Virus record (IMG/VR): IMGVR_UViG_2974647559_000001
Coordinates: 1 to 64,000 of that record
Source: a virus
Lineage: Duplodnaviria; Caudoviricetes
Length of the DNA stretch: 64,000 bases
Strand: one strand, 5' to 3'
The translations under genes and the position numbers were made by a program. Below are positions 22,578 through 49,625 of this stretch, piece after piece (position 1 is the first letter of the stretch; the number at the start of each line of letters is the position of its first letter). The notes beneath the pieces are model-generated. The model had not been told where the DNA came from. It made no database searches and worked only from the letters and a program-made list of their open reading frames with translations.

Positions 22578-22683
22578 ATTTAACCTATCTACAAGCGCCT
22601 ACAATCAATTATACAGTCATACCCTAACCAACGTACTACTTACCCCATAAAACCTCTCATAGACGCTCTACGGTTGTTTAAAT
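22578..22683. repeat. ~106-bp intergenic pseudo-palindrome E1
   Basis: ATTTAAC...CAACGTAC (offset 51)...GTTTAAAT. Confidence 0.65.
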
Positions 22684-22685
22684 GG

Positions 22686-22937
22686 CTATTTCAAGATACC
22701 TTTCACTTTAAGGTAGTCTATAAACTCAGCCAATTTGGTCAAATTCGCCGTCCTTCTACCATGGGAATAGAACTCAAAATCCTCTGGATTACTCATTAAG
22801 ACTTCATTTGCTGTTTCTAGCAAGTCATTTAGTGTCGGTGGTAATCCAATATAAGGAGAACCATCCTTAGTAAAATAACGAGTCTTTCCTTGGTTATCTA
22901 AACTACTGAAACCAACCCATCTGATGTCTGATGACAT
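22686..22937 (-). CDS. Hypothetical protein
   Basis: 83-aa ORF with RBS. Confidence 0.65.
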   Translation of the reverse strand: MSSDIRWVGFSSLDNQGKTRYFTKDGSPYIGLPPTLNDLLETANEVLMSNPEDFEFYSHGRRTANLTKLAEFIDYLKVKGILK

Positions 22938-22948
22938 ATTATTTATCC

Positions 22949-23317
22949 TTATTTCACTAAACTAGCTGCATATTCTAGTAAATAAACGCGAGGTGCTAAC
23001 CAGATTTGTAACCAATCAATTGTAAACATAGGACATGCAACTACATACATCACAATGTTTAGCCCACCAAGAGGTACCAATAGTGCTTCAAGTGTGTCTA
23101 TTTCTTTCCAAAGCCATCTGGTAAATTTATAACTTACAAACAATAGCAAACAAGAACTAAAGAAAGACAACAAACTCTCAGTAAACTTCCATGTTAGTAA
23201 TTCCTGAACAACCAATGGGATTTCATCAAATGCTGCACTACCAATCTCAGCAGCCTTATTAACTAAGTTTAATAATACATCTTCCGCGCGTTGTTGTAAT
23301 TCTGATTTATCACTCAT
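22949..23317 (-). CDS. Membrane protein (start likely at MSDKSE)
   Basis: Two hydrophobic helices; AGGAG before 23317. Confidence 0.7.
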   Translation of the reverse strand: MSDKSELQQRAEDVLLNLVNKAAEIGSAAFDEIPLVVQELLTWKFTESLLSFFSSCLLLFVSYKFTRWLWKEIDTLEALLVPLGGLNIVMYVVACPMFTIDWLQIWLAPRVYLLEYAASLVK

Positions 23318-23327
23318 AACATTCTCC

Positions 23328-23537
23328 TTATTTACCAATTCTAATATAATTAACACCAGTTGCTGATTCTAACTGCACCACAACACCATTGTCAACTCTA
23401 ACATTCACAAAACTGCCATTTATTTTTGCTTCCTGCCAGTCAATGTGTTGATTCACCTGTCTTGAATACTCCCAACTAATCTTCTGGTAGTCTGTACGGT
23501 CTATATGATATCGGAAGTTACCTATAAATGCAAACAT
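23328..23537 (-). CDS. Hypothetical protein
   Basis: 69-aa ORF in operon. Confidence 0.6.
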   Translation of the reverse strand: MFAFIGNFRYHIDRTDYQKISWEYSRQVNQHIDWQEAKINGSFVNVRVDNGVVVQLESATGVNYIRIGK

Positions 23538-23773
23538 TATTTAGCCTCCATTAAAACTATTTCTGTTGTATAACTAACTGAACCAATCTTTTGCGATAAG
23601 CCTAACACACGTTGATAATCTTCGCAAACTTTATCTACCACTTCGTTGTAATTTAATTCCCTATCTGATATTACATCAAACTCCAACACCTTATCGTGGT
23701 TGTCAAACTCATTGAAGTAGTGAGTGAGTGTGCCAGTGTATTTGTACATTTTTTGTGATTTAATTGTTGGCAA
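23537..23773 (-). CDS. Hypothetical protein
   Basis: 78-aa ORF in operon. Confidence 0.6.
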   Translation of the reverse strand: MPTIKSQKMYKYTGTLTHYFNEFDNHDKVLEFDVISDRELNYNEVVDKVCEDYQRVLGLSQKIGSVSYTTEIVLMEAK

Positions 23774-24176
23774 TTTGTTTCTCCTGTAAAACCAATATCA
23801 AACAGCAGGCTATTGCGCGCAGTGGGTTTTTATCACCAAACTGCTCACCATCAGCGCAAATACCGTCAATCTCATCAAATGCGCTAACATCTAAATAGTT
23901 TTCATATTTTACAGCTAAATAGCCATCACGAAGATGAATGGCGCTAATGCCATGCTCAAACACCAGAGGCATTATGTCTGAAACGTCACGGCAATATGCG
24001 GGGCATTCCCTATAGTATGACCCTTCGGGGTATTTTATCACGTTACTATAAATACCATCACCCGTATCAACATAGTGCTGCCCAATAAATTCTGCCTTGG
24101 GGTTTAGTAATAATTCAAGTTCTTTATTTACCTGCGCGTCACTCATACCCCGCAACTGTTCTTTTGTGTGTTTCAT
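23760..24176 (-). CDS. NinX/DUF2591-like protein
   Basis: DIMPLVFEHGIS...NPLRAIACC motifs. Confidence 0.65.
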   Translation of the reverse strand: MKHTKEQLRGMSDAQVNKELELLLNPKAEFIGQHYVDTGDGIYSNVIKYPEGSYYRECPAYCRDVSDIMPLVFEHGISAIHLRDGYLAVKYENYLDVSAFDEIDGICADGEQFGDKNPLRAIACCLILVLQEKQIANN

Positions 24177-24206
24177 AATTAATCTCCTTATTTATCTGTT
24201 GTGGGA

Positions 24207-24235
24207 AGTATGGGCTAATTGGGTTTGGTTGTCAA
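24207..24235 (-). promoter_or_regulatory. Sigma70-type promoter
   Basis: TTGACA-17-CATACT. Confidence 0.75.
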
Positions 24236-24269
24236 TATGGATTGCAGGATAATTTACTGCGGTTCTTCT

Positions 24270-25577
24270 TTATTTCCTTTTAACAACACAGTTATTTCCA
24301 CCAACAACCACTTGGTATGCCTTGTACATATTAGCTTCTGCAATATCTGCATAGTCCTCTTGAACAATAACACTGTCGTGTATTGGTACAAGGAGGCGAT
24401 CATCTTCTACTGCACGCTCTAGCATGTAATCCATAAGACTGGATTCGATATTCATTAAAAATGTAGCTTTCTTGGCAAAGAAGAAGTCCAATAGGTAAGC
24501 ATTCCTATCCATTAACATATCCAACATCTTACGGATAATTGGAAACTCTTGCCACTCACCTCTTTGCTTTGCATCATCAATCTTTGCTTGCATACCAGAG
24601 GATTTTAGTTCCCCTAGTGTGGCGTAGTAAGCTGTATCAAAGTTATCGGCATTAAATAGGCACATTAGACCCACTTTAGCTAAATCTCTCATTACTTTAG
24701 GACAATAACCTTCTATCTGCACACCATAAACATCAAAATCTGGCGCTAATTCTTGTCCAACTAAATCAGCAGCAATTCTAGGCCATAATTGGCTGTAGTC
24801 AATCTCAACAGTCTGTATGTCATTAATAAATATCTGCCTACGATTCTCTTTGTTGAGTAAATCCGACACATCAGAACCAGTCATGAAAACCCTCCCGCCT
24901 TCTTTGAGTGATGAGTTATTAAAGATTTTACGTAATGCTACATGGAATCTATCATCTTGAATGTTTATTTTCCCTTTGTCAAGTGCAGTATTAAAAGCGT
25001 TAAGAACATCAACCAGATGCTTCTCTTTCTCTGTTAACCTGATACCGATAGGTTTACCATTGCTGTCTCTCACCTCTATTACGCTGTCTTTAATAGTAAA
25101 ATCCTTAACATTTTCGGACACTTGTTTAATTATTTTCTCACAAAGGTATAGTTTACTTGTCTCAAACGACTGAGGAACCATCCTAAACTTATCCTTACCT
25201 TCTGAATCGACACCTACATGAGTTAGCCGGTAGTCAGTTGCACCCCCTTTCTCTGTAATCGAATGAGTATAATTCTCCAAGTAACTTAACACTATCTTCA
25301 TGTTTGTATAACTTATTTTCCTACCCGTGTTGTTTCCATTATAAATCACTGGAACTGAGTAAGCATTCTCATCTAATGTAAGTGTTATGTAAGGTCTACC
25401 TTTGTTGACAATGTAGGCAGTATTTAGGATCATGCAGTAGCAACACCTCTTTATGTCTGTCATTCTTTTTGCTGTAATCTTAGTACCCGTGAAGTCAGTT
25501 AGGTACTTAATAACATCCTTGTACAGCGTATCACCAACTAATGAAAGTTTCTTATTTAATTTATAATCTAATATCAT
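24270..25577 (-). CDS. Orphan right-hand polymerase-like protein (T7 RNAP/PolA-like motifs)
   Basis: GGRVF; EIDYSQLWPR (motif A-like); RDLAKVGLMCLFNA (B-like); PIHDSVIV (C-like). Confidence 0.6.
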   Translation of the reverse strand: MILDYKLNKKLSLVGDTLYKDVIKYLTDFTGTKITAKRMTDIKRCCYCMILNTAYIVNKGRPYITLTLDENAYSVPVIYNGNNTGRKISYTNMKIVLSYLENYTHSITEKGGATDYRLTHVGVDSEGKDKFRMVPQSFETSKLYLCEKIIKQVSENVKDFTIKDSVIEVRDSNGKPIGIRLTEKEKHLVDVLNAFNTALDKGKINIQDDRFHVALRKIFNNSSLKEGGRVFMTGSDVSDLLNKENRRQIFINDIQTVEIDYSQLWPRIAADLVGQELAPDFDVYGVQIEGYCPKVMRDLAKVGLMCLFNADNFDTAYYATLGELKSSGMQAKIDDAKQRGEWQEFPIIRKMLDMLMDRNAYLLDFFFAKKATFLMNIESSLMDYMLERAVEDDRLLVPIHDSVIVQEDYADIAEANMYKAYQVVVGGNNCVVKRK

Positions 25578-25679
25578 GTTTATGCCTCTTAAACCAACTA
25601 TAAGAGTTGGGATTCTCCCAATAACGGATAAATATTAAAAATACCAATAACCACAAGGGCTAGAGGTATTGTTTGCTTC

Positions 25680-25889
25680 CTATTCTTTGTCACAAAATAC
25701 CACTGTTTCTTTGTCTAAAATAACATCATAATAATACGATGCTGACAGTAGATACTCCACCCACACAGATCGAGTGAAGTCGTCGCTACCGTAAGGGCAA
25801 ACCTTCTCCATCATCTCAATCCAATCTTTAGGTTGTAAACCACATACTCTCCAAGGTAAAACTTTAGTTGTGTTGTCAATGTATAGCAT
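25680..25889 (-). CDS. Hypothetical protein
   Basis: 69-aa ORF with GAGG RBS. Confidence 0.55.
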   Translation of the reverse strand: MLYIDNTTKVLPWRVCGLQPKDWIEMMEKVCPYGSDDFTRSVWVEYLLSASYYYDVILDKETVVFCDKE

Positions 25890-26031
25890 ATATAGTCACC
25901 TCTCAATTATCACAGCAAGAGAAATTCCCACTGTCTATACCTAATTTTACCACAGGTAACACATAAATAGAAGCCGCATAGACGTCCAAATCAGTCAAGA
26001 AATAATATAAATAAATTTTATCTATTGGTTG

Positions 26032-26060
26032 TTGACACGGTAATTTGGAAGGTGTATTAT
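26032..26060 (+). promoter_or_regulatory. Sigma70-type promoter opening the rightward early region
   Basis: TTGACA-17-TATTAT. Confidence 0.85.
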
Positions 26061-26084
26061 TGGCACATCGAAACGAGATAGGAG

Positions 26085-26285
26085 ATGGTTATGAAAGACT
26101 TTACAGGTAAAGAATTAAAAGTAGGTGATTTAGTTATAGTTGCACATGTGACGGGTTATTCTTTTGATGTTGGTATGAAGGTTACACACGTAATTGCTTT
26201 TTGTGAAAAGACTAATAAGATATTGACAGAGAATGACCAAACTTTTGGGTATTCACCAGAATCGGTTGCCAAGGTTTGGTGTTAA
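26085..26285 (+). CDS. Hypothetical protein (KOW-like N-terminus)
   Basis: MKDFTGKELKVGDLV motif, similar to 49653. Confidence 0.65.
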   Translation: MVMKDFTGKELKVGDLVIVAHVTGYSFDVGMKVTHVIAFCEKTNKILTENDQTFGYSPESVAKVWC

Positions 26286-26296
26286 GGAGAAACCAA

Positions 26297-26497
26297 ATGA
26301 GTATGTTCTGCAAACATAAGTGGGAGATTTTATCTGAATTGAAAACTGACAGTATCTATGATAGAGTGAGGCGAGATGGTGGTAGCCTGTCATCGTCTAG
26401 TGTTTATGGGATGAAAGAAATAATGGGGTGTAGACTTATCCAATTGTGTACATGCACCAAATGCGGTAAGATTAAGAAATTCGTAGAACATATTTAA
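26297..26497 (+). CDS. Small Cys/His zinc-ribbon-like protein
   Basis: FCKHKW...CTKCGK; AGGAG RBS. Confidence 0.65.
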   Translation: MSMFCKHKWEILSELKTDSIYDRVRRDGGSLSSSSVYGMKEIMGCRLIQLCTCTKCGKIKKFVEHI

Positions 26498-26520
26498 AAG
26501 AAGTGGTGACTAAATATAGC

Positions 26521-26626
26521 ATTTAAACAAACACACAGGATTGTGGCGCCATTATCTACAGAAACATAGGTCAACGTATTGACTACAGGATAAAATGGCT
26601 TAGAATTGATTATAGACAGCTTAAAA
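26521..26626. repeat. ~106-bp intergenic pseudo-palindrome E2
   Basis: ATTTAAAC...CAACGTAT (offset 51)...TTAAAA; GCCATTAT/AAAATGGC arms. Confidence 0.65.
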
Positions 26627-26651
26627 GCTAAAGAGAATAAGGGGAATAATT

Positions 26652-26843
26652 ATGTACCATTTAGTTTTACGTCAATATGATGGAACTTATATAAGAATCG
26701 AGAACGAAGAACCATTCGACCAATATGAAATTGCAGGTTATGAAAGTGAATATTGTCAGTATACTGTTGACAATACCAGACCTTACTACGATAATCAGGT
26801 GAGGTACGATGCTGTGGCAGTTAATATCTTTCAATCGGAATAA
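26652..26843 (+). CDS. Hypothetical protein
   Basis: 63-aa ORF with RBS. Confidence 0.65.
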   Translation: MYHLVLRQYDGTYIRIENEEPFDQYEIAGYESEYCQYTVDNTRPYYDNQVRYDAVAVNIFQSE

Positions 26844-26854
26844 GGAGAATAATT

Positions 26855-27184
26855 ATGTTTTTAGTTAAACATTTTCAATATGGGTTAGCGGTTAAGGTAG
26901 ATTTCTTCCATAACTCAAGAGAGACTGTTATTGGTAGTGTTGAATGTTACGAAACACTAGAGGCCAAATGGAGAGAGTTCTTTGCTTTAGGTTATATCAT
27001 GGGGAGTAAAACCAACATGGTGACTGGTTGGGTGAGCAATAGAGACTTGAAAGTTCAAGCTGAAGCTGCTAGAATGCTATCAGAAGTGTTTGATATATTC
27101 GAGGATGATTTCACTAAAGAAGAATTGATTAAACTTGGTTATAAAGAAACTAACACATTACGAAAAGGAGGAGAACTGCAGTGA
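26855..27184 (+). CDS. Hypothetical protein
   Basis: 109-aa ORF with AGGAG RBS. Confidence 0.7.
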   Translation: MFLVKHFQYGLAVKVDFFHNSRETVIGSVECYETLEAKWREFFALGYIMGSKTNMVTGWVSNRDLKVQAEAARMLSEVFDIFEDDFTKEELIKLGYKETNTLRKGGELQ

Positions 27185-27696
27185 CTAAATTACAAAACAT
27201 GAAAATTCGTATCAATAATCCAGAACATTCTAAGGAAGTGCAGGAGTGTTTGTTTAAATTAGGATATATGTGGAACAGTCAACTGTTCCCTACTGTTTGG
27301 AGGGCTGAAGATGCTGACAACCTCTTCACTTATAAAAGTGGTAAGATTTATTGTGCTGCTGATACTGGTCAGGAGTATTTTGTGGAACACAACAACACAG
27401 AAGTTACCCTAGAGGATTTACGAGCTATGCTAGCTGAACAGTGTGCTGGTGCTACTAAGGTGGGTACGGTGGATATCCGTCCATTTTCTATAGATACTAC
27501 AGAGAATCAAATAACATTCCAAGAACTACAAGAACTGGTTAGCACCACCAATATTGAGCTTACATTTCAAACCAACGGTAAAGTTCATATTTATGACTAT
27601 GATACAGACACAGGGAAAGAGTTTGACAGTGTGGAGGATGCTGTATTATTGTTAAAGGCTAAGGCTGAGTACCTAAAGGAGTGGAATAAATTATGA
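27181..27696 (+). CDS. Hypothetical protein
   Basis: 171-aa ORF with GTGA overlap. Confidence 0.7.
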   Translation: MTKLQNMKIRINNPEHSKEVQECLFKLGYMWNSQLFPTVWRAEDADNLFTYKSGKIYCAADTGQEYFVEHNNTEVTLEDLRAMLAEQCAGATKVGTVDIRPFSIDTTENQITFQELQELVSTTNIELTFQTNGKVHIYDYDTDTGKEFDSVEDAVLLLKAKAEYLKEWNKL

Positions 27697-27908
27697 ACCA
27701 ACAACAAGAATTACAAACATTCCTAGCTGCATTACAACAAGCCAGTAAGCAAGCTGTTGGGTTACGTCAGATGAATGTCACAGATAAGTCTAACCGAAGT
27801 GAATGGATTGTTGGGGTAGGAAATCAAATGTTCTCATTGTGGTGTAATCCTGATGACAGTTGGGGTTGGGAGTATTACAACCCGATGCAAAGTAATTTTG
27901 GATTTTGA
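27693..27908 (+). CDS. Hypothetical protein
   Basis: 71-aa ORF with ATGA overlap. Confidence 0.65.
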   Translation: MNQQQELQTFLAALQQASKQAVGLRQMNVTDKSNRSEWIVGVGNQMFSLWCNPDDSWGWEYYNPMQSNFGF

Positions 27909-27920
27909 TTGAAATGGTTA

Positions 27921-27949
27921 TTGACAGGCTAATTTCAGTCTGCAATACT
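27921..27949 (+). promoter_or_regulatory. Sigma70-type promoter
   Basis: TTGACA-17-AATACT. Confidence 0.75.
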
Positions 27950-27979
27950 AGGCACAGCTTACAACAAAGGAGATAAATT

Positions 27980-28972
27980 ATGAAAGGTTACAAAGCTTTT
28001 AATCGTGTAAAGGGTTGCGACAAATCTGGTATGTGTCGTGGCATGTTGTTCGAGGAAGGGGAAATCTATGAAATAACAGGAGAACTCAAGATTTACAGTA
28101 ACGGCCTACATTTTTGTGAATACTTAGTCCAGACCTTTGAATATTATGAGTATGACCATTCAAAGACTATTTATGCGGAAGTAGAGGCAATCGGAGATTT
28201 AGATGTAGAAGATTTGTTGGAGTTTAAGTATGCAACCAACAAACTCAAAGTAGTTAAATTTTTAACACAATCAGAAGTAGAAGCCATGTTCTCTGACGAC
28301 AAACGGAATACTGGTAATCAGAATACTGGTAATCAGAATACTGGTTTTCAGAATACTGGTAATCGAAATACTGGTAATCAGAATACTGGTAATTGGAATA
28401 CTGGTAATTGGAATACTGGTGATTGGAATACTGGTAATCGGAATACTGGTAATCAGAATACTGGTTTTCAGAATACTGGTGATCAGAATACTGGTTTTCT
28501 GAATACTGGTGATCGGAATACTGGTAATCAGAATACTGGTAATTGGAATACTGGTAATCGGAATACTGGTGATTGGAATACTGGTAATCGGAATACTGGT
28601 GATTGGAATACTGGTTATTGGAATACTGGTAATCAGAATACTGGTGATCAGAATACTGGTAATCGGAATACTGGTAATTGGAATACCTCAGATAGAAACA
28701 CAGGGTTTTTCAATACGAAACCTATTAGTACCATTTTAGTATTCAATGTTGAAACTTCCTTAGATGAGTGGGGTAGCTGCGAAAAACCTAATTTTGTTTA
28801 TTTTAACTTAGTGGGTTGTGGTGACTACAAAAAGTCATTCATTGCGAGTTTTAACAAAACAAAAAAATCAGATGTTGAGTTGCTATTAAAACTGCCAAAC
28901 TTTGATTACAAAGTATTTGAAGAAATTTCTGGAATATCTGAGCAAATGATTATGGATAAATTGAGCCAATAG
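27980..28972 (+). CDS. GxxNT pentapeptide-repeat protein
   Basis: KGYKAF..GLHFC N-terminal domain, ~27 xxNTG units, LPNFD C-terminal cap. Confidence 0.85.
   Translation: MKGYKAFNRVKGCDKSGMCRGMLFEEGEIYEITGELKIYSNGLHFCEYLVQTFEYYEYDHSKTIYAEVEAIGDLDVEDLLEFKYATNKLKVVKFLTQSEVEAMFSDDKRNTGNQNTGNQNTGFQNTGNRNTGNQNTGNWNTGNWNTGDWNTGNRNTGNQNTGFQNTGDQNTGFLNTGDRNTGNQNTGNWNTGNRNTGDWNTGNRNTGDWNTGYWNTGNQNTGDQNTGNRNTGNWNTSDRNTGFFNTKPISTILVFNVETSLDEWGSCEKPNFVYFNLVGCGDYKKSFIASFNKTKKSDVELLLKLPNFDYKVFEEISGISEQMIMDKLSQ
28301..28715 (+). repeat. 15-bp coding tandem repeat (core GAATACTGGT)
   Basis: Seen directly, about 27 units with no spacers. Confidence 0.95.
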
Positions 28973-28980
28973 CACTTCCC

Positions 28981-29086
28981 ATTTAAACGCTCTGTAAGAG
29001 CCTCAGAGCAATTCTGAGGCTATCCCTAAGCCAACACACTCATTCAGATAGATAATGGCTTGTAGATGCTTACAGGTATCTTAAAA
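28981..29086. repeat. ~106-bp intergenic pseudo-palindrome E3
   Basis: ATTTAAAC...CAACACAC (offset 51)...TTAAAA; GATAGATAATGGCT shared with E5. Confidence 0.65.
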
Positions 29087-29089
29087 TTG

Positions 29090-29160
29090 AGAACCAGCAT
29101 GGTAAATCTTAGAACCGGATGCAATTTTCATAGAACCAGTCCATCATTCCAAAATACCAA
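29090..29160 (+). repeat. AGAACC(A/G)G boxes at 21-bp spacing
   Basis: Copies start at 29090, 29111, 29132; degenerate fourth at 29153. Confidence 0.5.
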
Positions 29161-29608
29161 CAACGTTCACCGTTGCACCAACGACACTTTTCATAAAGAC
29201 TAGTAGGTAAATCCTTGAAATAGCTAGAAATTTTGAGACTAGAGGTGTTTGCCGATTTTCAGCCAGAAAAATTCAGAAATTTGTACAGAATATGTAAACC
29301 AAAAATTTACAAACAGAAATAACTCATTAACATTCTGTTAATATTTAATATGTAAATTATTTGTTAATGATGTTGCAAAAATGTAAATTGTTACAGGCAG
29401 CCCCCCTGTTTGTCTCCTACCGTATTCAGTAGCCATCACGCATAACAAGAGTATAGCAAACAACTGCAAAGAATTACAAGCAATAAAACAAAATAAATTA
29501 AAAATAACTTTATCCTGATTTTTAAACATTGGCATGTTGTTTGCTACGCGCACAATGCTATATAAGAAAGACAATAAAATTTATTTTAATTATTTTCACA
29601 AAAACAGG

Positions 29609-29637
29609 TTGACAGCCTAAATTAAAACAACTAAGCT
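29609..29637 (+). promoter_or_regulatory. Sigma70-type promoter
   Basis: TTGACA-17-TAAGCT. Confidence 0.75.
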
Positions 29638-29684
29638 TTACGCAAGTTAAGGCAATAGTGCCGGATAATGTAAATAGGTGATTT

Positions 29685-30047
29685 ATGCATAAAAATATAG
29701 GATACCACACCAGATCAATGGAAGACGGTAAAAAATTAGTAGGGGGTTCTTTTGGCGGTGCAATCGACCAGGAGACTGTCGAAAGAATCTCGCGCTTGTT
29801 TACAGTCATTATTAAACCATCAGGCAGGGCTGTTTTTGTTGATGACAAAGGTAATGAAGTATACCTCTATTTTTCTATTGACCCCCAAAATACAGAGAAA
29901 GGTAAGCAGGCAATAAAAGAAGATCGACAAAAACGAGAATTAAAACAAAAAGAAGAACAAGAGCTATTGGAACAACAAGAGAGAGAATTAACCGAAGCTA
30001 TGCAAGGCTTGAGCCACGAGGAAATATTGGAAAAGCTTGCAAAATAA
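29685..30047 (+). CDS. Hypothetical early protein with C-terminal coiled coil
   Basis: 120-aa ORF downstream of promoter. Confidence 0.75.
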   Translation: MHKNIGYHTRSMEDGKKLVGGSFGGAIDQETVERISRLFTVIIKPSGRAVFVDDKGNEVYLYFSIDPQNTEKGKQAIKEDRQKRELKQKEEQELLEQQERELTEAMQGLSHEEILEKLAK

Positions 30048-30090
30048 TTTAAATTAGCGCTTGCATTAGCTGGCGCTATAAACTAAGCTT
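30042..30090 (+). promoter_or_regulatory. Repeated promoter cassette, copy 1
   Basis: AAATAATTTAAATTAGCGC-TTGCAT-17-TAAGCT; TAGCGC/GCGCTA inverted repeat around -35. Confidence 0.7.
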
Positions 30091-30122
30091 TGCTGGAATT
30101 AATCAAACCGGAGTTTTACAAG

Positions 30123-30452
30123 ATGATAGACTACACAGCTTACTTAAAACATAGGCATACAATTGTTTGCCAATATATTATAGGTAATTCTGACCAATTG
30201 CCAGCCAGTTTAAAAATTTCGTCGGCTATGGGGGCAACATCTATTAGAACAAAAAACGGTAAAATGCAAGATCATTACGAAAACGTTTTAGAAGGTTTAG
30301 CTGATGATTTGTTAAATGCTATACAATACCCGCTAAACACTTTTAGCAGTGGTGACCAAGCTTTTCAGATGTTTAGACTACTACCGTTTAAAGTGTATAA
30401 AATGTGCTGGTCTGAAGTTGTAAAACTTTGTATTAAGGAACTAGAAAAATGA
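30123..30452 (+). CDS. Hypothetical early protein (start likely at MIDY)
   Basis: GGAG RBS before 30123; ORF-track start lies next to the -10 box. Confidence 0.65.
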   Translation: MIDYTAYLKHRHTIVCQYIIGNSDQLPASLKISSAMGATSIRTKNGKMQDHYENVLEGLADDLLNAIQYPLNTFSSGDQAFQMFRLLPFKVYKMCWSEVVKLCIKELEK

Positions 30453-30466
30453 TAAGAATAAAGATA

Positions 30467-30515
30467 AAATAATTTAAATTAGCGCTTGCATTAATGGGCG
30501 CTATCAACTAAGCTT
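30467..30515 (+). promoter_or_regulatory. Repeated promoter cassette, copy 2
   Basis: Near-identical to 30042-30090. Confidence 0.7.
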
Positions 30516-30545
30516 AACGCATCAAAACAAACAAGGGCTTTAAAA

Positions 30546-30671
30546 ATGATTACATTAGCTTTATTCTCAATCACTGTACTGGCTACGATTGGATCGGTTA
30601 AATCTGGCCACAGTAAGTTGGCGTTTATGTCTGCAATGTCTTGTGTTGCTGTAATTGCTGGGAGTATATAA
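30546..30671 (+). CDS. Small membrane peptide (41 aa, not in ORF track)
   Basis: MITLALFSITVLATIG...; directly after promoter. Confidence 0.5.
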   Translation: MITLALFSITVLATIGSVKSGHSKLAFMSAMSCVAVIAGSI

Positions 30672-30720
30672 CCCTAACGGGTTATGCCTTCTTTCGTTAT
30701 CACTCAATAAGGTGTTAAAA

Positions 30721-30864
30721 ATGAAAGCTTACTTAAAATTCTTATCATTCGCTGAATGGTTGACAGAAGAAAGATTGCAAAACATTTGCATTGTTTGGCT
30801 ATTTACTGTTATCCTTTGCAGTGGATCAATTGTTGAATCAATTTGTAAATTAATGGGGGTGTAA
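30721..30864 (+). CDS. Small membrane protein, duplicate A (47 aa)
   Basis: MKAYLK..WLTEERLQNIC..VILCSGSIVESICKLMGV; AAGG RBS. Confidence 0.7.
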   Translation: MKAYLKFLSFAEWLTEERLQNICIVWLFTVILCSGSIVESICKLMGV

Positions 30865-30865
30865 G

Positions 30866-31147
30866 ATGCGATTATTTGAATTGCGGGCTGGATGGGTGGA
30901 AGAATATGATTGCCCAGATAACGGGGTCACAGAGATATGCAATAACTACGATGTTATTGCTATGCAAATCAACGGTAATGATAAGCTTGTCGCAATGGCT
31001 GAAGATCTGTCAAAAGGTTTTAACGGTGAGTACTGGTCTTTAAAAAGAGTTACAGAACTGCGTGCGATTTATCCAAATTATGATGATTTTAGGGAAGCAA
31101 AGTACACTATACACGAACTAACTGATCTAGTAATTAATGACGAATAA
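30866..31147 (+). CDS. Hypothetical acidic protein
   Basis: 93-aa ORF lying between the duplicates. Confidence 0.65.
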   Translation: MRLFELRAGWVEEYDCPDNGVTEICNNYDVIAMQINGNDKLVAMAEDLSKGFNGEYWSLKRVTELRAIYPNYDDFREAKYTIHELTDLVINDE

Positions 31148-31151
31148 CAAA

Positions 31152-31295
31152 ATGAGAGCTTATTTGAAGTTGTTAGCTTGTTCTAATTGGTTAACAGAAG
31201 AAAGAATACAAAACATTTGCATGTTTACGGTGTTTGCTGTTATCCTTTGCAGCGGATCAATTGTTGAATTTATTTGTAAATTATTGGGAGTTTGA
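31152..31295 (+). CDS. Small membrane protein, duplicate B (47 aa, not in ORF track)
   Basis: MRAYLK..WLTEERIQNIC..VILCSGSIVEFICKLLGV. Confidence 0.7.
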   Translation: MRAYLKLLACSNWLTEERIQNICMFTVFAVILCSGSIVEFICKLLGV

Positions 31296-31297
31296 TT

Positions 31298-31501
31298 ATG
31301 GTAGATTTTTCTGATTATTTAGGTAAACAAAAAATTGAGTTAAAATCCGATTTTCGTATACGTCTATTGTGCAAACAACATTCAGGTTTTTCAAATTGGT
31401 TTGGGAATAAATTTTTAAAGTGGGAATATGATATGGTTGATAGAGATGAGGTAGAAAACTTAAATAGTTCATTTTGTCGTGCTTATTTAGAATTGAATTA
31501 A
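31298..31501 (+). CDS. Hypothetical protein
   Basis: ORF in operon. Confidence 0.55.
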   Translation: MVDFSDYLGKQKIELKSDFRIRLLCKQHSGFSNWFGNKFLKWEYDMVDRDEVENLNSSFCRAYLELN

Positions 31502-31514
31502 TGACAAATAACCC

Positions 31515-31543
31515 TTGCAAATTATTAATGCCTGTTGTATATT
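31515..31543 (+). promoter_or_regulatory. Sigma70-type promoter
   Basis: TTGCAA-17-TATATT. Confidence 0.7.
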
Positions 31544-31588
31544 TAGTGGGCATTGCTAAGACAGCAAGACAAGAGAGAGGGTTACAAA

Positions 31589-33130: not shown

Positions 33131-33136
33131 CCTAAT

Positions 33137-33203: not shown

Positions 33204-33309
33204 TATTAACGCTCATAGAATCCATTGTATAGCGTTATTCAGTAGCTATGCTACCACTTGCTTAGCTTAGTCTTACAACGTCTTATAGGCTCATGCAGAC
33301 AGCCTATAA
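33204..33309. repeat. ~106-bp element E6 (most diverged)
   Basis: Starts TATTAACGCTC (cf. E3), ends AGACAGCCTATAA (cf. E2); central motif not conserved. Confidence 0.4.
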
Positions 33310-34396
33310 TTGATTTTATCCTACCACATAGGCTCAATATAATAAGCTATTACATAATTATGTGAATAATATCTGAATAGATAAAGCATTAGTGGATAAG
33401 GATATAGGCTCAATAGCTGGCTAATTGTCATTAGATGGATGTTATCAGATAGGGCTAATTGTTTAGTAATTGTTAATGGATCATCTGTTTGGATGTCTAG
33501 TGTGGGTGCTAACTTGGTGTTATTGGTTGGTTAATATATTGTTATTTGATTATCTATTCTATTATTGATTGGTTAAACACAAAACTAACATCCTATTAAC
33601 ATAATTAGACTACATACTCTAATTATTAACAATCCATTCACACAAATAATTGTAAATAATCCATTCATAGCATGTTGCATAAATGTAAATAATCTATACA
33701 CAATTAATTTACATACAACATGCAATCAGTATGCCAACATTAAATAAATATAATTATTCATACAGTATGCAATAGGTAATGACACGTCATTTAATTGACA
33801 TTTAACATAATATAGATTATGAGTTATTAGTAATAGAATGAATAGGTTATGCATAATTATGATGAGTAATTGCATACAGTAATTTGTGCTGGATATACAG
33901 TAGTATTGATTTGATGAATAGATATTTTAGAATTATAAGCTAATTGTATAATGGGGTATTGGGTGTGTTAAACCACTCAAACGTTAATTTTAAATATACC
34001 CAACCTAGTACCCCCAAACGATATTTCCACACTACAAATTAGTCAGGTAATCATCAGGGACCACTAGGGGAATATTAACTGGATATTTTCATACTGGATA
34101 TTTTAATCTAACCCTTGTGAAATAAGAGTTGGTGGGTGTATCTGCCTGTTGTATTAGAAATAGGATTAGTAACAAGAATTATAGAGGATATTTCAATAGA
34201 TATTTCTACTAATTATAATTTAGAATAATACACTATGGCATGGTAGTTGCTTTACAGTATAAGCTGGTTTTTTGGAGGGGTTGATTTATGCGGAATTTCT
34301 AACCTACCCTAATACATTTAAAGTATTGGGGTACGATATTTCTATTGTGTAGATATTTTAGATGTGTCATAATGCTTGTATTAGATTGGAGGGTGT
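33310..34396. other. Long AT-rich non-coding tract; candidate origin or genome-end region
   Basis: No ORF in track; GT-rich to CA-rich switch near 33575; GATATTT repeats. Confidence 0.5.
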
Positions 34397-37536: not shown

Positions 37537-37545
37537 AAATCCTCC

Positions 37546-46538: not shown

Positions 46539-46645
46539 TTTTAAGCTGCCTGTAGAAGCCTACAAGACGTTATATCACATTACCTAATACGAACGTACTG
46601 CTATGGTGCTATAAATCCTTGTAGGCACTTACAGGCACTCCAAAT
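46539..46645. repeat. ~106-bp intergenic pseudo-palindrome E4
   Basis: Arms GCCTGTAGAAGCCTACAAG / CTTGTAGGCACTTACAGGC (16/19 complementary); centre GAACGTAC. Confidence 0.7.
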
Positions 46646-47031: not shown

Positions 47032-47125
47032 ATTATTACCCATATAAATCCACCTGTCAACACAGAAACACAAATATTTTAAATATATTTAGTTGTTGAC
47101 AGGGTGGTGTTCAGTGTTCTAATAT
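47032..47125. promoter_or_regulatory. Back-to-back sigma70-type promoters at the strand switch
   Basis: Minus: TTGACA (47060-55)-17-AATAAT; plus: TTGACA (47096)-18-TAATAT. Confidence 0.65.
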
Positions 47126-47246
47126 GTTCAGGAATGTTGAACGTTGTAGGTAAATGAACGGACTAACGCAAATAAAGTCTTTAGTTTCCTTGACAACTGT
47201 AATATATATGCTATACTTAAGTGGATTTAAACAGAACGGAGTGAAT

Positions 47247-47469: not shown

Positions 47470-47725
47470 GACAAATTGTCTTATAGACCACCAGACATTT
47501 TGTCCAACAACCAACCGACAAATTGTCTTGCTAATAAGATAGAGTAAAGTAAGATAGAAAATAAATAAAATAGAATTAAAGAAAGATGACACCAACAGAC
47601 TTTTTGTCTGATACAAGACTTTACACTAAAAGCTAAAAAGCTTGTTGTTTTGTGTGTATTCTTAATCTTTTATTCTGTTTTGGTGTATAAACAAGTTAAA
47701 TAGATAAACCACCCGACTTTTTGTC
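47470..47725. repeat. Five GAC-N5-GTC boxes (iteron/operator-like)
   Basis: At 47470, 47494, 47517, 47598, 47715; purine/A-rich tract between copies 3 and 4. Confidence 0.75.
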
Positions 47726-47897
47726 TGTTGGTTAATGGAGGTGTTAATGTTTATTCTTATACCAAAGGAACTACTCTTGTGGATAGATGAGAACAGAGGT
47801 TCTTTATCAAGACAAGCTTTTGTCATTGAGTGTATGTTCTCCTTAAAGAAAGGTTAACTTTAACCCTAGTCTAATACTAAAATACTAAGGACTAACT

Positions 47898-48416
47898 ATG
47901 ATTAAAAATACATTTACAAAAATAGGCGATCATCTGCTGATGTGTGGTGCTGTTGTATCACCAGATGGTGAGGTGATTAAAGTAACTGCTGCTGACAAGC
48001 TAATCCTAGCCTTTATGCACCACAGGTGGAACTACTTTGTTGTGGAAGAAAAACAAGAGTATTGGGATTCTATGGAATATATAGCACTCCGTACAGGTAA
48101 CAACGTAAAAACCGTTGAGCGTTGCGTGTCTAAGTTCACTAAAGCTGGTATACTGTTAGCAGAGAAGCGTTTTGACAAAAAGAAGAAACATAACAAGTGG
48201 TTTTGGTTGGGTTTTTCTGAGGTGAAATATATGGTTACTAAGAAAGACGGTGGTATGGAATTTGTTAAGGAGGGTATGGAAGCATATAAACCGAAACCAC
48301 ACTACAAAGAAGATAACACTGCCGCAAAACCAGCACTAGAGGATTTTGATATGTTGGTTCCATATAGTGACTATGACCATGATGTAACAATGAGTATGTG
48401 GGAGGCAGGTTTATGA
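47898..48416 (+). CDS. Winged-helix DNA-binding protein (initiator-like)
   Basis: ADKLILAFM...SMEYIALRTGNNVKTVERCVSKFTKAGIL. Confidence 0.65.
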   Translation: MIKNTFTKIGDHLLMCGAVVSPDGEVIKVTAADKLILAFMHHRWNYFVVEEKQEYWDSMEYIALRTGNNVKTVERCVSKFTKAGILLAEKRFDKKKKHNKWFWLGFSEVKYMVTKKDGGMEFVKEGMEAYKPKPHYKEDNTAAKPALEDFDMLVPYSDYDHDVTMSMWEAGL

Positions 48417-48456
48417 ATGGTTACTATGTTGATGTGGGTTAGGAGTGAAATAACCA

Positions 48457-48485
48457 TTGACAATCACAATAACCTCTGCCACAAT
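48457..48485 (+). promoter_or_regulatory. Sigma70-type promoter
   Basis: TTGACA-17-CACAAT. Confidence 0.65.
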
Positions 48486-48516
48486 TAGCGCAGATCAATA
48501 ATTAAGGAGATAAATT

Positions 48517-48987
48517 ATGAAAGAGTTAGAGTTTTTTGAAAAATATTTTTCATTTAGACTTAAAATGGAAAAAGAGAACAACGTAATGTTACAAGTGACA
48601 CCAAGTTGCGGTATGTGGATGGATAAATCTTCAATGAAAGACGTACAGCGTTTTGGGGCTGAGATCATGAAAAACACACTTGAAAAAGCCTTTCCGAACC
48701 TAATCATAGGCGTTTATCACCCAGAGCAATTAGATGTTTGGGTTAACAATGGTAGTCAAATGTCACTTGGTAAGTGTCACATATCTGATTTAAAAGAGTT
48801 AAACGAGAAAGCATCTGAAATAATAAATGGTAGGTTGTTTTGGTGCAGCGGTTGCAACCAATTCTTGGGTAAGGTTCTTCACAGTGCATCTGTGTTCTCT
48901 GGACACTACTGTAGTGATTGTGTAACCAACAATCCAAAAATTAAAGCTTTAGTTAATGAAAGCAAAAGACCAAACTTTTACGATTAA
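48517..48987 (+). CDS. Hypothetical protein with C-terminal zinc ribbon
   Basis: CSGC...CSDC. Confidence 0.7.
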   Translation: MKELEFFEKYFSFRLKMEKENNVMLQVTPSCGMWMDKSSMKDVQRFGAEIMKNTLEKAFPNLIIGVYHPEQLDVWVNNGSQMSLGKCHISDLKELNEKASEIINGRLFWCSGCNQFLGKVLHSASVFSGHYCSDCVTNNPKIKALVNESKRPNFYD

Positions 48988-48999
48988 GGAGAATAAATT

Positions 49000-49254
49000 A
49001 TGATAATCACAACAACAGACAATCAACGCATTAAAGTGGATAGCTTTAGTCAATATCAACTTGTAGAACGTAAGAAGGTTAATCGTGGATGCTTCCGATG
49101 GCTTGCAGTATTACTATTGTTTTGGCCTGCATTGATCCTTTGGTTCTTTGTCGGTGATAATGCAATGTATGTCCGTATAGACGGGACAATGTATCTGATT
49201 AATGAGTTTCAATATAATCGTTTGGTGGACTTTTTGGATGGTGGTGAGATATGA
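49000..49254 (+). CDS. Small membrane protein
   Basis: Central transmembrane helix; AGGAG RBS. Confidence 0.7.
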   Translation: MIITTTDNQRIKVDSFSQYQLVERKKVNRGCFRWLAVLLLFWPALILWFFVGDNAMYVRIDGTMYLINEFQYNRLVDFLDGGEI

Positions 49255-49493
49255 AAACAGTTAGTGAGTTGAAGGTTTCCTTAAAATCTGGTGAATATCA
49301 TGGTGTTAATATTATGGAAGCTTTGTGTACAATAGAAAATCAGCAAAGACAAATTGCAGAACTTACTCATACACTGAATGAGTTGTATGAAATAACCGAT
49401 GAAGTTTGGTGCAATGAAGGTTTAGAGTTAGTTAGACATTTAAAACTTAGAAATGTCTTAAAGAAAGTAGATAAAATTTTGGAGGGTAATTAG
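49251..49493 (+). CDS. Hypothetical coiled-coil protein
   Basis: ATGA overlap. Confidence 0.65.
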   Translation: MKTVSELKVSLKSGEYHGVNIMEALCTIENQQRQIAELTHTLNELYEITDEVWCNEGLELVRHLKLRNVLKKVDKILEGN

Positions 49494-49518
49494 TATGAAT
49501 GGTGTTCTTACAAGGCAA

Positions 49519-49625
49519 GTTTAACCACTCTACAGAAGCCTACAAGCTACTTTAGTAGCCACCATAAGTCAACATATTACTTAGGATAGATAATGGCTCA
49601 GAAGTGGCTGTAGGGTTGTTTAAAT
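49519..49625. repeat. ~106-bp intergenic pseudo-palindrome E5
   Basis: GTTTAAC...CAACATAT (offset 51)...GGTTGTTTAAAT (end shared with E1). Confidence 0.7.

Follow-up and report, generated by a model that had tools for sequence, protein, structure and literature searches.

Candidate strong gyrase sites dispersed downstream of putative divergent early promoters in a tailed phage genome

Phage Mu carries one central strong gyrase site (SGS), and for the BIME-2 repeats in Escherichia coli operons a role involving gyrase is presumed. DNA elements of this class, comprising strong gyrase sites and gyrase-binding repeats of the BIME type, are already known. For the E. coli gyrase motif, the properties reported by Sutormin et al. 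(PMC6379681) include an enrichment of gyrase sites downstream of highly transcribed operons, a likeness to nucleosome binding, and a stagger between two gyrase cuts that corresponds to motif positions 0 to 3. A different type of element is described for T4-like phages, which are reported to contain PeSL and PmSL cassettes with a promoter, an SD and an ATG (PMC4122927).

Here, we describe a family of intergenic elements in a 64,000-nucleotide window (the whole stretch of DNA analysed) of the complete 84,608-bp genome of a marine-type phage. An initial annotation of the window had stated that no feature class explains these elements, an overstatement given the known class just mentioned. The elements resemble strong gyrase sites dispersed downstream of divergent early promoters, and judging from their sequence, we put the chance that they are such DNA at about even. 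The role proposed for them is similar to that of the single central SGS of Mu and to that thought for BIME-2 repeats in E. coli operons.

Membership, geometry and genomic setting

Five of the six elements initially annotated as having a fixed geometry form a real family, and the sixth stands apart:

22578 to 22684, no strand assigned: E1, leave-one-out nhmmer E 2.8e-7
26521 to 26627, no strand assigned: E2, leave-one-out nhmmer E 1.8e-4
28981 to 29087, no strand assigned: E3, leave-one-out nhmmer E 1.5e-15
46539 to 46645, no strand assigned: E5 (fourth core element of the initial annotation), leave-one-out nhmmer E 1.3e-4
49519 to 49625, no strand assigned: E6 (fifth core element of the initial annotation), leave-one-out nhmmer E 4e-13
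33204 to 33321, no strand assigned: degenerate relative with a core-like CAACGTC at 33276 and TATAATTGATT at 33305

The earlier labels are valid only if the core elements are numbered 1 to 5 with 33204 skipped. When the whole 84.6-kb genome was searched on both strands, the left-out element was the top new match each time (5/5; E 1.5e-15 to 1.8e-4), and a genome-wide profile scan found no further full copy in this genome. All five elements are 107 bp long with TTTAA-type ends. The central (C/G)AACRYAY ascribed to them lies, as claimed, at 0-based offset 51 in four and at 52 in that at 46539, the chance expectation being 0.047 per 107 bp on one strand. The shared blocks were also borne out: GATAGATAATGGCT (29047 and 49585), AGAAGCCTACAAG (46554 and 49534) and GGTTGTTTAAAT (22672 and 49614) each occur at exactly two sites in the genome, at equivalent element offsets. 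The longest word common to elements is 14 nt; a shared word of at least 12 nt appeared in 29 of 1000 trials, each using five random 107-bp windows. The stretch at 33204 is, on alignment, a degenerate relative with a different geometry and no sixth fixed-geometry element: the core is absent at offset 51-52, its alignment to the family requires 10-column gaps, nhmmer matches only about 40 nt (E 6.7e-4 to 4.9), and it has no match to the gyrase motif (best score 3.4). By eye, the spacing from CAACGTC to TATAATTGATT is 29 nt, equal to that in 26521, and the left arm, shorter by about 10 nt, is 35 nt farther from the core.

Dyad symmetry surrounds the core (47% Watson-Crick complementarity vs about 25% background), the dyad-related columns being mostly invariant motif positions rather than covarying pairs. 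The initially noted recurrence of TA at intervals of about 10 bp holds for the mean power spectrum of 14 distinct copies, which peaks at 9.75 bp (z of 12.2 for TA, 8.3 for WW and 7.3 for SS; 95th percentile of the shuffle maximum z, about 3.5), but an individual peak is present in only two of the five window copies. E5 is the most hairpin-like copy. Extended to relatives, the suggested profile scan detected this 107-bp architecture, again without gaps, between genes in seven contigs of uncultured phages with 20-55% protein identity. The sites are partly syntenic, and the gapless alignment counts as evidence of selection.

All five elements lie within gaps separating co-directional genes, in the neighbourhood of two putative divergent promoter regions:

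26032 to 26060, plus strand: putative sigma-70-like early promoter of divergent region A, TTGACA-17-TATTAT (consensus scan only)
47032 to 47217, no strand assigned: divergent region B with putative sigma-70-like promoters at 47060-47032 (minus) and at 47096-47125 and 47190-47217 (plus) (consensus scan only)

Region A is flanked by E1 and E2 and region B by E5 and E6, each element being downstream on its side. E1 occupies the gap of two leftward genes directly upstream of a phosphatase/PRPP-synthase/NAMPT operon, and E2 is about 490 bp downstream of the putative rightward consensus early promoter at 26032. E3 lies at the end of a rightward operon, 8 bp past the stop codon of the gene for a 330-aa repeat protein. 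E5 is about 400 bp downstream of the putative leftward consensus promoter 47060-47032, and E6 is in a rightward operon about 2.3 kb downstream of the putative promoters 47096/47190; the genes between these two elements include those of an HTH protein and of a 'replication initiation'-like winged-helix protein. The core was said to be on the plus strand even in leftward operons, which is the case for all five elements here, those at 22578 and 46539 in leftward operons included, but one of the five copies in a related genome (G001) is inverted.

Fit to the gyrase motif

To score the genome on both strands, we used the 130-bp gyrase motif in the form of its published position frequency matrix (Table DS10 of Sutormin et al., PMC6379681), a matrix that is E. 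coli's and may not be the host's. The genome-wide score has a mean of -6.7 (sd 3.4), and 30 non-overlapping peaks score at least 5. Ranked among these, the elements and their predicted staggers are as follows:

22629 to 22632, no strand assigned: 4-bp gyrase-cut stagger CAAC in E1, predicted from the matrix peak; score 11.5, rank 1/30, highest in the genome
26572 to 26575, no strand assigned: stagger tetranucleotide CAAC in E2, predicted by matrix scan; score 5.15, rank 28/30, weakest element
29032 to 29035, no strand assigned: stagger tetranucleotide CAAC in E3, predicted by matrix scan; score 7.3, rank 8/30
46591 to 46594, no strand assigned: stagger tetranucleotide GAAC in E5, predicted by matrix scan; score 9.1, rank 4/30
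49570 to 49573, no strand assigned: stagger tetranucleotide CAAC in E6, predicted by matrix scan; score 9.1, rank 3/30

The motif peak of each element is on the core, at offset 52/53, and five nucleotides off the score is about -13. Left arm, centre and right arm are positive in every element (1.1 to 4.8), the respective genome means being -2.8, -1.4 and -2.85. In E1 they score 4.8, 3.9 and 2.9, and from the maximum at centre 22630 the score falls below -9 within 2-4 nt rightward and at least 4 nt leftward. The mean best score of the five elements was 8.44 vs a maximum of 3.30 in 1000 free permutations of the matrix columns and 2.33 in 1000 dyad-symmetric permutations, and rotation of the arm phase by 1-10 columns lowered the score every time. 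None of the other 32 intergenic gaps of at least 60 bp scores 5 or more (maximum 3.4). In 100 Markov genomes the maximum score was 7.2 +/- 0.85 (largest 10.2), with 0.03 peaks of at least 9; the real genome has four such peaks, three of which are elements. Six of its ten peaks of at least 7 are not elements, and with a phage-composition background, under which the matrix is governed by GC content, the top 12 peaks include no element. In the seven related genomes, each of the 27 copies reaches at least the 99.85th percentile of its genome, and all but two (25) also reach the 99.9th; copies hold ranks 1 and 2 in G004 and in G007 and ranks 1, 3 and 5 in G002, and in G001 three non-element sites outscore the best copy. 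As a positive control, positions 17000-19500 of Mu gave a top peak of 12.5 with the +3/+4 cut between 17879 and 17880, which is the gyrase cut site annotated in the Mu record. The DNA-level site of about ten helical turns that was the leading initial proposal, a strong gyrase or wrapping site like the Mu SGS, is supported by the fit of the E. coli matrix, with ranks of 1, 3, 4, 8 and 28 of 30, and the elements are candidate sites. They differ from the E. coli motif in period (9.75 bp vs the 10.75 bp reported in PMC6379681) and in length (107 bp vs 130 bp).

Alternative readings of the elements

The elements might instead be regulatory promoter cassettes of the PeSL/PmSL kind, which would be compatible with gyrase sites and which we consider possible, if somewhat unlikely. 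Each arm would be an outward-facing promoter whose -10 box, TAnAAT, precedes TGATTRTAGR, with SD and ATG coming immediately after in relatives; a phage activator or repressor would bind the central box CAACGTA, shared by both promoters near -30; and the cassettes would restart or gate transcription within long operons, their conserved sequence being also a recombination patch. A -10-like hexamer (at least 5/6 match, A2 and T6 required) is found in 14/15 sense and 11/15 antisense arms, against a chance of 0.13 per arm; the window copies have it in 4/5 sense vs 1/5 antisense arms. The core is at about -33 to -26 of both divergent -10 boxes by our own alignment count, and arms in relatives lead straight into GGAGG and ATG, as in TAGAATTGATTGTAGGAGGTTTAAATG. 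E2, alone among the five copies, contains a full sigma-70-like promoter, TTGACT-16-TAGAAT (26579-26606), and a natural variant of a related strain (26603 G>T) turns its TAGAAT into TATAAT. One of 13 strain-level joints, a two-gene 639-bp indel in a related strain, begins exactly at the right edge of E1; the other 12, however, are away from the elements. A -35/-10 pair occurs in only one of five window copies by consensus scan, promoter-like matches in the regions scanned barely exceed those in shuffles (62 vs 54.9 and 45 vs 34.4), and the terminator-like stem-loop that is part of the PeSL definition was found in none of the elements. Moreover, promoters in both arms imply antisense firing into the upstream gene, a wrapping site likewise needs AT-rich hexamers phased every 10 bp, and the fit to the gyrase matrix, centre included, is not predicted by such cassettes. 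Another reading places the function in RNA: the arms of a read-through transcript would fold into a long irregular hairpin of 25-35 bp. RNase III might process the transcript there, or the hairpin might stabilise the mRNA, as at T7 intergenic sites or in Correia elements; alternatively, it might separate early from later genes as a factor-dependent attenuator. This reading we regard as improbable. In sense, the fold beats that of shuffles in four of the five window copies (z -2.4 to -5.1), the exception being E2 (z -0.9), and the five in sense orientation give an RNAalifold consensus of -10.2 kcal/mol, second of 32 orientation combinations, the fully antisense set giving 0. Sense MFE is below antisense in 11/14 copies and at least 20 arm-to-arm pairs form in 10/14 sense folds, but the sense-over-antisense bias is genome-wide (66% of 269 control junction windows, 71% of 48 large gaps). 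RNAalifold gives no conserved pairs with 11 or 14 copies in any orientation, and the dyad columns are mostly invariant rather than covarying. The elements have neither a T-run nor a terminator-like call. No Rfam family was found for the elements; RNA-library contigs of a related strain span E1-E3 unbroken, and contigs cannot reveal RNA ends. An orientation independent of transcription and the lack of a family-wide RNA structure fit a DNA-level site.

At the DNA level, another wrapping protein could fit equally well because the gyrase motif mostly encodes phased AT/GC bendability. The elements would then be an assembly site for a different protein that wraps DNA or oligomerises on it in a sequence-specific way, encoded by the phage or belonging to the host nucleoid. 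Such a protein would read the phased units, TGTAG/CTACA or in one lineage TGTAC, together with the ACGT core, and might block transcription in both directions, delimit a domain or mark a site related to replication; we think this unlikely. The repeat unit shifts in concert between lineages (CTACAAG...CTTGTAG in G000, the present genome, to G005 vs GTACAAG...CTTGTAC in both arms of two G007 copies), suggesting co-evolution with a specific reader, and specific columns are invariant across 11 aligned copies in a dyad-symmetric architecture of phased units. Specific sequence conserved beyond the need of indirect readout, such as the 16-mer TAKAATTGATTRTAGR and the -10-like hexamers in the arms, points to an additional or different sequence-specific reader. 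The HTH and winged-helix proteins mentioned above and a PolA-like 435-aa protein, present in all five partial or complete relatives that have copies and hold the region, are in line with such a protein, but no candidate was identified. Such a site is unlikely to match the gyrase matrix by chance in its arms, its centre and its register (0/1000 scrambles), and the fit persists in the TGTAC lineage (G007: 13.5, 11.3, 6.5 and 6.2). That the elements are MITEs (Correia/RUP-like), or site-specific recombination sites moving gene cassettes, is very improbable. Their size of about 107 bp, imperfect terminal inverted repeats, TA/TTTAAA ends and intergenic location would suit either, as would the indel adjoining E1 and, in G002, mosaic boundaries beside two of four copies with a third copy forming an island of homology. 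The far end of the indel is, however, an ordinary stop/SD junction with no second element, no transposase or integrase is present among the 123 window ORFs, and the positions are syntenic across phages at 20-55% protein identity. Identity among copies within the genome (42-61%, mean 51%) is similar to that between genomes (48%), which shows no recent transposition or homogenisation; at about 50% both within and between genomes, the copies appear to be old sites under selection and no recent MITEs. A pattern scan gave 15 matches in 185,579 species genomes and 30 in JGI metagenome contigs, none of the 45 being family-like (nhmmer E<0.01), and no element copies were found in bacterial genomes. 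The MITE-like origin considered initially is hence disfavoured; for recombination sites bounding accessory genes, the joint at E1 and some mosaic boundaries offer a little support, but such boundaries are common everywhere in these genomes.

Proposed role as gyrase sites

If the elements are strong gyrase sites, the (C/G)AAC-containing core would be placed in the cleavage-religation centre of host DNA gyrase, and the two arms of about 50 bp, in which flexible TA/AT-rich segments and G/C alternate with a spacing of about 10 bp, would be wound around the C-terminal domains of GyrA. A search of the complete phage genome found no GyrA/ParC or GyrB domain; a phage without its own type IIA topoisomerase may use these sites to capture host gyrase on its genome. 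On either side of the two putative divergent early-promoter regions they lie 0.4-3 kb downstream, within early and middle operons, where positive supercoils from transcription and replication would accumulate. There they may serve as sinks for supercoils or as anchors of topological domains, so that both processes can continue. The -10-like hexamers of the arms, together with SD/ATG in relatives, could be a second, overlapping use of the AT-rich phased segments. If this reading is true, the phage genome would possess several built-in docking sites for the supercoiling enzyme of its host.

Five dispersed elements and the genome that carries them

The initial annotation had proposed six dispersed pseudo-palindromes of fixed geometry. 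Five of them do have such a geometry: each is 107 bp long, with TTTAA-type ends and a (C/G)AACRYAY core at offset 51 or 52, each occupies a gap between co-directional genes, and the core is on the plus strand in all five regardless of gene direction, as had been stated. The sixth, at 33204, departs from it: its alignment needs 10-column gaps and it has no core at the fixed offset. By eye, its CAACGTC resembles the core and is followed, at the canonical spacing of 29 nt, by a right-arm motif, with the left arm displaced, and it is a decayed relative of the family. The elements are as follows, with the cuts flanking the (C/G)AAC core that are predicted from a gyrase matrix:

22578..22684, core on plus strand: element E1, predicted cuts flanking 22629-22632
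26521..26627, core on plus strand: element E2, predicted cuts flanking 26572-26575
28981..29087, core on plus strand: element E3, predicted cuts flanking 29032-29035
33204..33321: degenerate relative
46539..46645, core on plus strand: element E5, predicted cuts flanking 46591-46594
49519..49625, core on plus strand: element E6, predicted cuts flanking 49570-49573

The three shared blocks reported earlier (12-14 nt) were recovered, each exactly twice in the genome and at equivalent offsets, and the labels attached to them fit only when the five elements are numbered 1 to 5. In leave-one-out profile searches, each omitted element was the best new match in the 84.6 kb on both strands (E 1.5e-15 to 1.8e-4), and beyond these five the profile search found no complete copy in the genome. 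In structure the element is quasi-palindromic: two dyad registers lie 10 columns from each other, and Watson-Crick complementarity in them reaches 47% and 42% against a background of about 25%. Its arms are inverted versions of one ~50-bp motif made of 10-bp units, ATAAT-nGnT-T(G/A)KA(G/A)K-...-TAG-...-TTTAAA, and the dyad-symmetric columns are mostly invariant motif positions rather than covarying pairs. The TA steps, described as recurring at roughly 10-bp intervals, gave in a periodicity analysis a peak at 9.75 bp, which is shared by AT-rich and GC-rich dinucleotides when the spectra of 14 distinct copies are averaged (z 7-12). Allowing at most 1 mismatch, the arm motif TANAATTGATT is present 31 times versus 16.9 expected; its use as a stand-alone signal was rejected. 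The extended motif occurs only in elements.

The window covers the initial 64 kb of a single-contig virus record of 84,608 bp (G+C 38%), the completeness of which is 100% by CheckV. PHROG matches among 123 window ORFs indicate the gene content of a tailed phage: genes for nucleotide metabolism and replication are read leftward from about 25.9 kb, small early genes are divergent around 26 kb and around 47 kb, and from 53 kb onward the genes for packaging, head and contractile tail are read rightward. Among cultured phages no close relative was found, the best match of the DNA polymerase being 66% identical (Vibrio phage) and that of the major capsid protein 34%; closer relatives are known from proteins alone, their polymerases, on contigs of 82-93 kb, being 70-87% identical. 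In the complete phage genome, neither a GyrA/ParC nor a GyrB domain was found.

A 435-aa protein (24270-25577, minus strand) has PolA-like motifs (DYSQ..., K300, HDS) and is conserved in all related contigs holding that region; homologues 25-28% identical occur in ICP1-like Vibrio, Aeromonas and Pseudoalteromonas phages. Alongside the family-B replicase (14207-16411), it is a second polymerase. Searching Pfam and PDB with its sequence gave no match. The best fold matches of its AlphaFold model (pLDDT 89) are family-A DNA polymerases, though at low TM (~0.3): Foldseek matched Bst Pol I, Klenow, apPOL and T7 DNA polymerase with E from 7e-6, and no RNA polymerase is among the 47 matches listed (ranks 1-49). 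The idea that the elements are promoters of a phage RNA polymerase was dropped, given the family-A DNA polymerase-like fold predicted for this neighbouring protein.

Several other features lie in the window. About 37 tandem 15-bp units encoding pentapeptide repeats (28229-28791) lie within the gene 27980-28972 for a 330-aa protein (Pfam Pentapeptide_2 and DUF7666), which ends 8 bp before E3, and contigs in the assemblies of related strains break at these repeats. A small leftward ORF contains another array, of 18/12-bp tandem repeats (11650-11913). Free-standing HNH endonuclease genes (PHROG 953) number four (6315-6944, 13508-14185, 50374-51033 and 63134-63811); they are paralogues, lie on both strands and are 61-78% identical in DNA (most stretches 71-75%); none adjoins an element, except loosely that at 50374, which is 750 bp from E6. 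The stretch 33131-34396, 1.27 kb without an ORF above 50 aa, contains the degenerate element as well as direct repeats (three, each of 22 nt, at 33619-33700) and several hairpins that resemble terminators, and may be a control or origin region. A 94-nt tRNA-Val (gac) called by ARAGORN at 57218-57311 is inside a head-protease-like gene (56050-57456); it is probably false and is unrelated to the elements.

Copies in related phages

A protein search with the phosphatase adjoining E1 led to an IMG/VR contig with two copies, one of them immediately upstream of the phosphatase orthologue (42% identity) with its relative orientation unchanged. Pattern and protein searches yielded seven contigs of related uncultured phages (G001-G007), three of which, at 93-95 kb, were rated as complete. 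Eleven copies, drawn from four of the contigs, fill 114 alignment columns with two single-column indels and a mean column identity of 68%; the proteins of G001 are 20-55% identical to those of the window. Identity among copies is 42-61% (mean 51%) inside the window genome and 48% between genomes, and since these two levels are similar, neither homogenisation nor recent spread is indicated. Synteny is partial: E1 counterparts lie downstream of the 435-aa polymerase-like gene, an E5 counterpart lies about 2 kb right of phoH, and an E6 counterpart lies downstream of a winged-helix gene. In the G007 lineage, GTAC replaces the CTAC/GTAG units in both arms.

Wider searches gave chance matches or none. 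An Rfam gathering scan of the window had 0 matches, megablast of 22000-34000 against 50,697 phage records had none, and blastn of E6 against phage records gave only 7 short chance matches. A strict two-part pattern matched 15 times in genome contigs (185,579 species genomes) and 30 times in JGI metagenome contigs, all by chance. Two scans of viral contigs with 14-15-mers gave, among the matches listed, mostly chance hits, and only same-clade contigs were real. In the first 50 kb of Vibrio phage 1.084.O, whose DNA polymerase is 66% identical, nhmmer found no copy.

Fit to the gyrase motif and to known gyrase sites

The E. coli gyrase motif is described as 130 bp long and symmetric, with a central part from -16 to 19 and two arms of 47 bp each whose GC content has a period of 10.75 bp, and the scores published with it are 14.3 for Mu's strong gyrase site (SGS) and 16 for that of pSC101 (excerpts of PMC6379681). 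The frequency matrix of that paper (Table DS10), which is E. coli-derived and may differ from that of the host, was scanned across the genome. The elements score 11.5, 9.1, 9.1, 7.3 and 5.15 on this E. coli-derived matrix, against a genome mean of -6.7 (sd 3.4), and are peaks 1, 3, 4, 8 and 28 among 30 genome peaks of at least 5. As a positive control, identical code gave for Mu a top peak of 12.5 with the cut at the annotated 17879|17880.

The matrix peak falls within 1 nt of the core position in all five elements and collapses within a few nucleotides, and the dyad axis is on the core (register S=112, 47% complementarity versus ~25%). Left arm, centre and right arm all add to the score, both arms being positive in every one of the five copies, and rotating the arm phase lowered it in 10 of 10 rotations. 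Matrices with permuted columns (1000 free and 1000 dyad-symmetric) never exceeded 3.3 versus the observed mean of 8.44; the maximum was 3.4 in 32 other intergenic gaps and 7.2 +/- 0.85 in 100 Markov genomes. The AT profile of 18 sites correlates with that of the motif (r 0.59), and of the 27 copies in the seven relatives, 25 reach at least the 99.9th percentile of their own genome, with top ranks in G002, G004 and G007.

Some features of the fit call for caution. E2 is marginal, some relatives' copies are also weak, and six of the ten peaks of at least 7 in the window's genome are non-elements. The matrix encodes largely bendability, and the elements have 107 bp and a 9.75-bp period versus 130 bp and 10.75 bp in the motif. 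With a phage-composition background no element is in the top 12; the matrix then tracks GC content, and because GC content dominates it, this background is uninformative. The ten peaks of at least 7 compare with 0.85 in Markov genomes. Non-element sites scoring 7-9.4 lie inside genes at 11752-11800 and 17443 in the window and at 68259, 70877, 79812 and 82770 in genome coordinates, the last being also a weak nhmmer match to the element profile (E 0.04).

How do the elements compare with known gyrase sites? Like the Mu SGS, which is cut at 17879-17880 between genes G and I, they are intergenic between co-directional genes, and their scores (5.2-11.5, up to 13.5 in a relative) are comparable with the 12.5 obtained for Mu with identical code. 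Dyad symmetry, a central cleavage region and phased bendable arms are common to the elements, the SGSs of Mu, pSC101 and pBR322 and the E. coli motif, cleavage being a prediction here. Like Mu with its SGS, this phage carries its SGS-like elements without a gyrase of its own. However, Mu is a temperate transposable phage with one central SGS tied to replicative transposition, whereas this phage is a virulent-looking myophage of about 85 kb with five (up to about seven) homologous copies dispersed in early/middle operons. Unlike the single Mu SGS, the family is kept across the whole clade, and its copies have a recognisable common sequence, which known SGSs do not. Both arms score in the elements, while the Mu literature stresses the right arm (PMC10052514).

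The REP/BIME-2 repeats of E. coli are likewise a family, not one single site, of dispersed palindromic intergenic repeats within or after operons; gyrase preferentially binds and cleaves them, as is predicted for the elements. PMC6379681 names them among gyrase-binding repeats. The elements differ in that they are AT-rich, have a fixed 107-bp geometry and are borne by a phage, no transposase is associated with them, and a comparison through Rfam gave no match. REP units, for their part, are chromosomal, and these short, GC-rich palindromes are spread by RAYT transposases. The literature available in part describes SGSs for Mu-type phages, plasmids and BIMEs, and no dispersed homologous family in a lytic phage was found in it.

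The earlier suggestion of a strong gyrase or wrapping site agrees with the matrix score, core register and arm phase, and gyrase binding itself remains a prediction. The best-supported reading, to which we give about an even chance, is that of a conserved SGS-like family downstream of early promoters on both sides; the elements probably recruit host gyrase.

Mobile, RNA-level and promoter readings

It had also been proposed that the elements are MITE-like or are recombination sites bounding accessory genes. Some breakpoints do coincide with them. In a 95-99% identical strain (contigs from RNA-library and DNA runs), which retains E1-E3, one of 13 joints is a 639-bp two-gene deletion (22689-23327) starting exactly at the right edge of E1, but its far end is an ordinary stop/SD junction and the other 12 joints are elsewhere. 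Mosaic boundaries between G001 and G002 adjoin two of four copies, a third being an island of homology; because boundaries are very frequent across these genomes, this coincidence is suggestive at most. In the related strain, a nucleotidyltransferase/hydrolase/tRNA-nucleotidyltransferase block (34878-37540) is replaced by 297 other letters, and 425 bp (30072-30496) are deleted between 50-bp direct repeats (30041-30090 and 30466-30515). A MITE-like nature is not supported, given a mean identity of 51% where near-identical copies would be looked for, the presence of E1-E3 in the related-strain contigs and syntenic positions in distant relatives; no cognate transposase was found among the 123 ORFs (PHROGs), and none of the 45 genome and metagenome matches to the one strict pattern scanned resembles the family. 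A target-site duplication would be indistinguishable, because the TTTAAA ends belong to the palindrome. The Correia repeat enclosed elements of Neisseria, as described in excerpts of PMC2649163, are alike in size (~100-150 bp), in inverted-repeat ends, of which one or both have promoter-like sequences, in the conservation of the core, in a central protein-binding site (bound by IHF in Correia, putative in the elements) and in an RNA hairpin, which in Correia RNase III can bind. Correia elements move as MITEs and are present in hundreds of near-identical copies on the chromosome, whereas the phage elements are few, about 50% identical, syntenic and phage-specific, and by eye their arms lack an IHF consensus. 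Neither IHF nor DnaA boxes matched consistently by eye. The attC end consensus is RYYYAAC/GTTRRRY. Integron attC-like sites were rejected, as the resemblance to these ends is loose, no integrase was found among the 123 ORFs and the E1 indel ends at an ordinary gene junction.

A role in RNA is possible. When the five window copies are oriented by sense, they give a consensus hairpin of -10.2 kcal/mol, second best of 32 orientation sets, versus 0 for the fully antisense set, and the sense fold beats the antisense in 11 of 14 copies. However, RNAalifold found 0 conserved pairs for 11 or 14 copies in four orientations, a sense-over-antisense bias is also present in 66-71% of control gene junctions, and no terminator-like site was found inside any element; because of these three results, the conserved feature is not an RNA role. 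RNA-library contigs span E1-E3 unbroken, and such contigs show neither RNA ends nor even transcription. Sequestration of the SD by the upstream arm is possible in some relatives, but was rejected, as the window SDs are outside the elements.

Signals for transcription and translation are possibly overlaid on the SGS-like elements. Of 15 sense arms, 14 contain a good -10-like hexamer, as do 11 of the 15 antisense arms, versus a chance rate of 0.13; the related strain has TATAAT where E2 has TAGAAT, and only E2 of the five window copies has a -35/-10 pair. The 16-mer TAKAATTGATTRTAGR recurs in elements and runs into GGAGG and ATG in relatives, and its conservation suggests a putative further reader. 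Several relatives' copies have an SD and start codon at the element end, and the window SD lies 5-30 nt beyond the element. Consensus TTGACA promoters sit at the two divergent regions (26032; 47060-47032, 47096 and 47190). In excerpts of PMC2839356 and PMC4122927, the PeSL and PmSL of T4-like phages are likewise intergenic cassettes that are conserved and recur in the plastic early regions of large myophages; they carry -10 boxes (-10-like hexamers in the elements), have an SD and start codon at the end (here in several relatives' copies) and adjoin strain-level indels, as E1 does. In PmSL, an activator box at about -30 replaces the -35 (excerpts of PMC4122927); that the central box is at about -30, beside -10-like hexamers, is our own reading. 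In a PeSL, one directional sigma-70 promoter comes after a terminator stem-loop (same excerpts), unlike in the elements, which have a dyad-symmetric two-arm design of fixed 107-bp length, an orientation independent of transcription, no terminator-like hairpin and a full -35/-10 pair in one of five.

Meaning of a proposed SGS-like family

Strong gyrase sites are known from a few single cases (Mu, pSC101 and pBR322) and BIME repeats, and to our knowledge the way in which topoisomerase-less phages handle supercoiling stress during early transcription and replication is largely unexplored. Returning to the SGS-like reading, we propose tentatively, with somewhat less than even confidence, a clade of virulent myophages of about 85-95 kb in which a conserved, homologous SGS family, placed symmetrically downstream of divergent early promoters, would hijack host gyrase as supercoil sinks or topological insulators, the phased AT-rich arms doubling as outward promoters and ribosome-binding cassettes. 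If true, this family would be the first of SGSs to be both dispersed and conserved in sequence, as well as the first in a phage that is not transposable, and would provide a natural set of graded high-affinity gyrase substrates. If gyrase is bound, the 27 homologous sites scoring about 3 to 13.5 would be a natural allelic series for topoisomerase research, the elements would serve as compact modules controlling plasmid or phage DNA topology, and otherwise unexplained conserved phage spacers would gain an annotation class. It would also mean that lytic phages evolve and keep dedicated gyrase-capture sites at defined positions of their transcription map.
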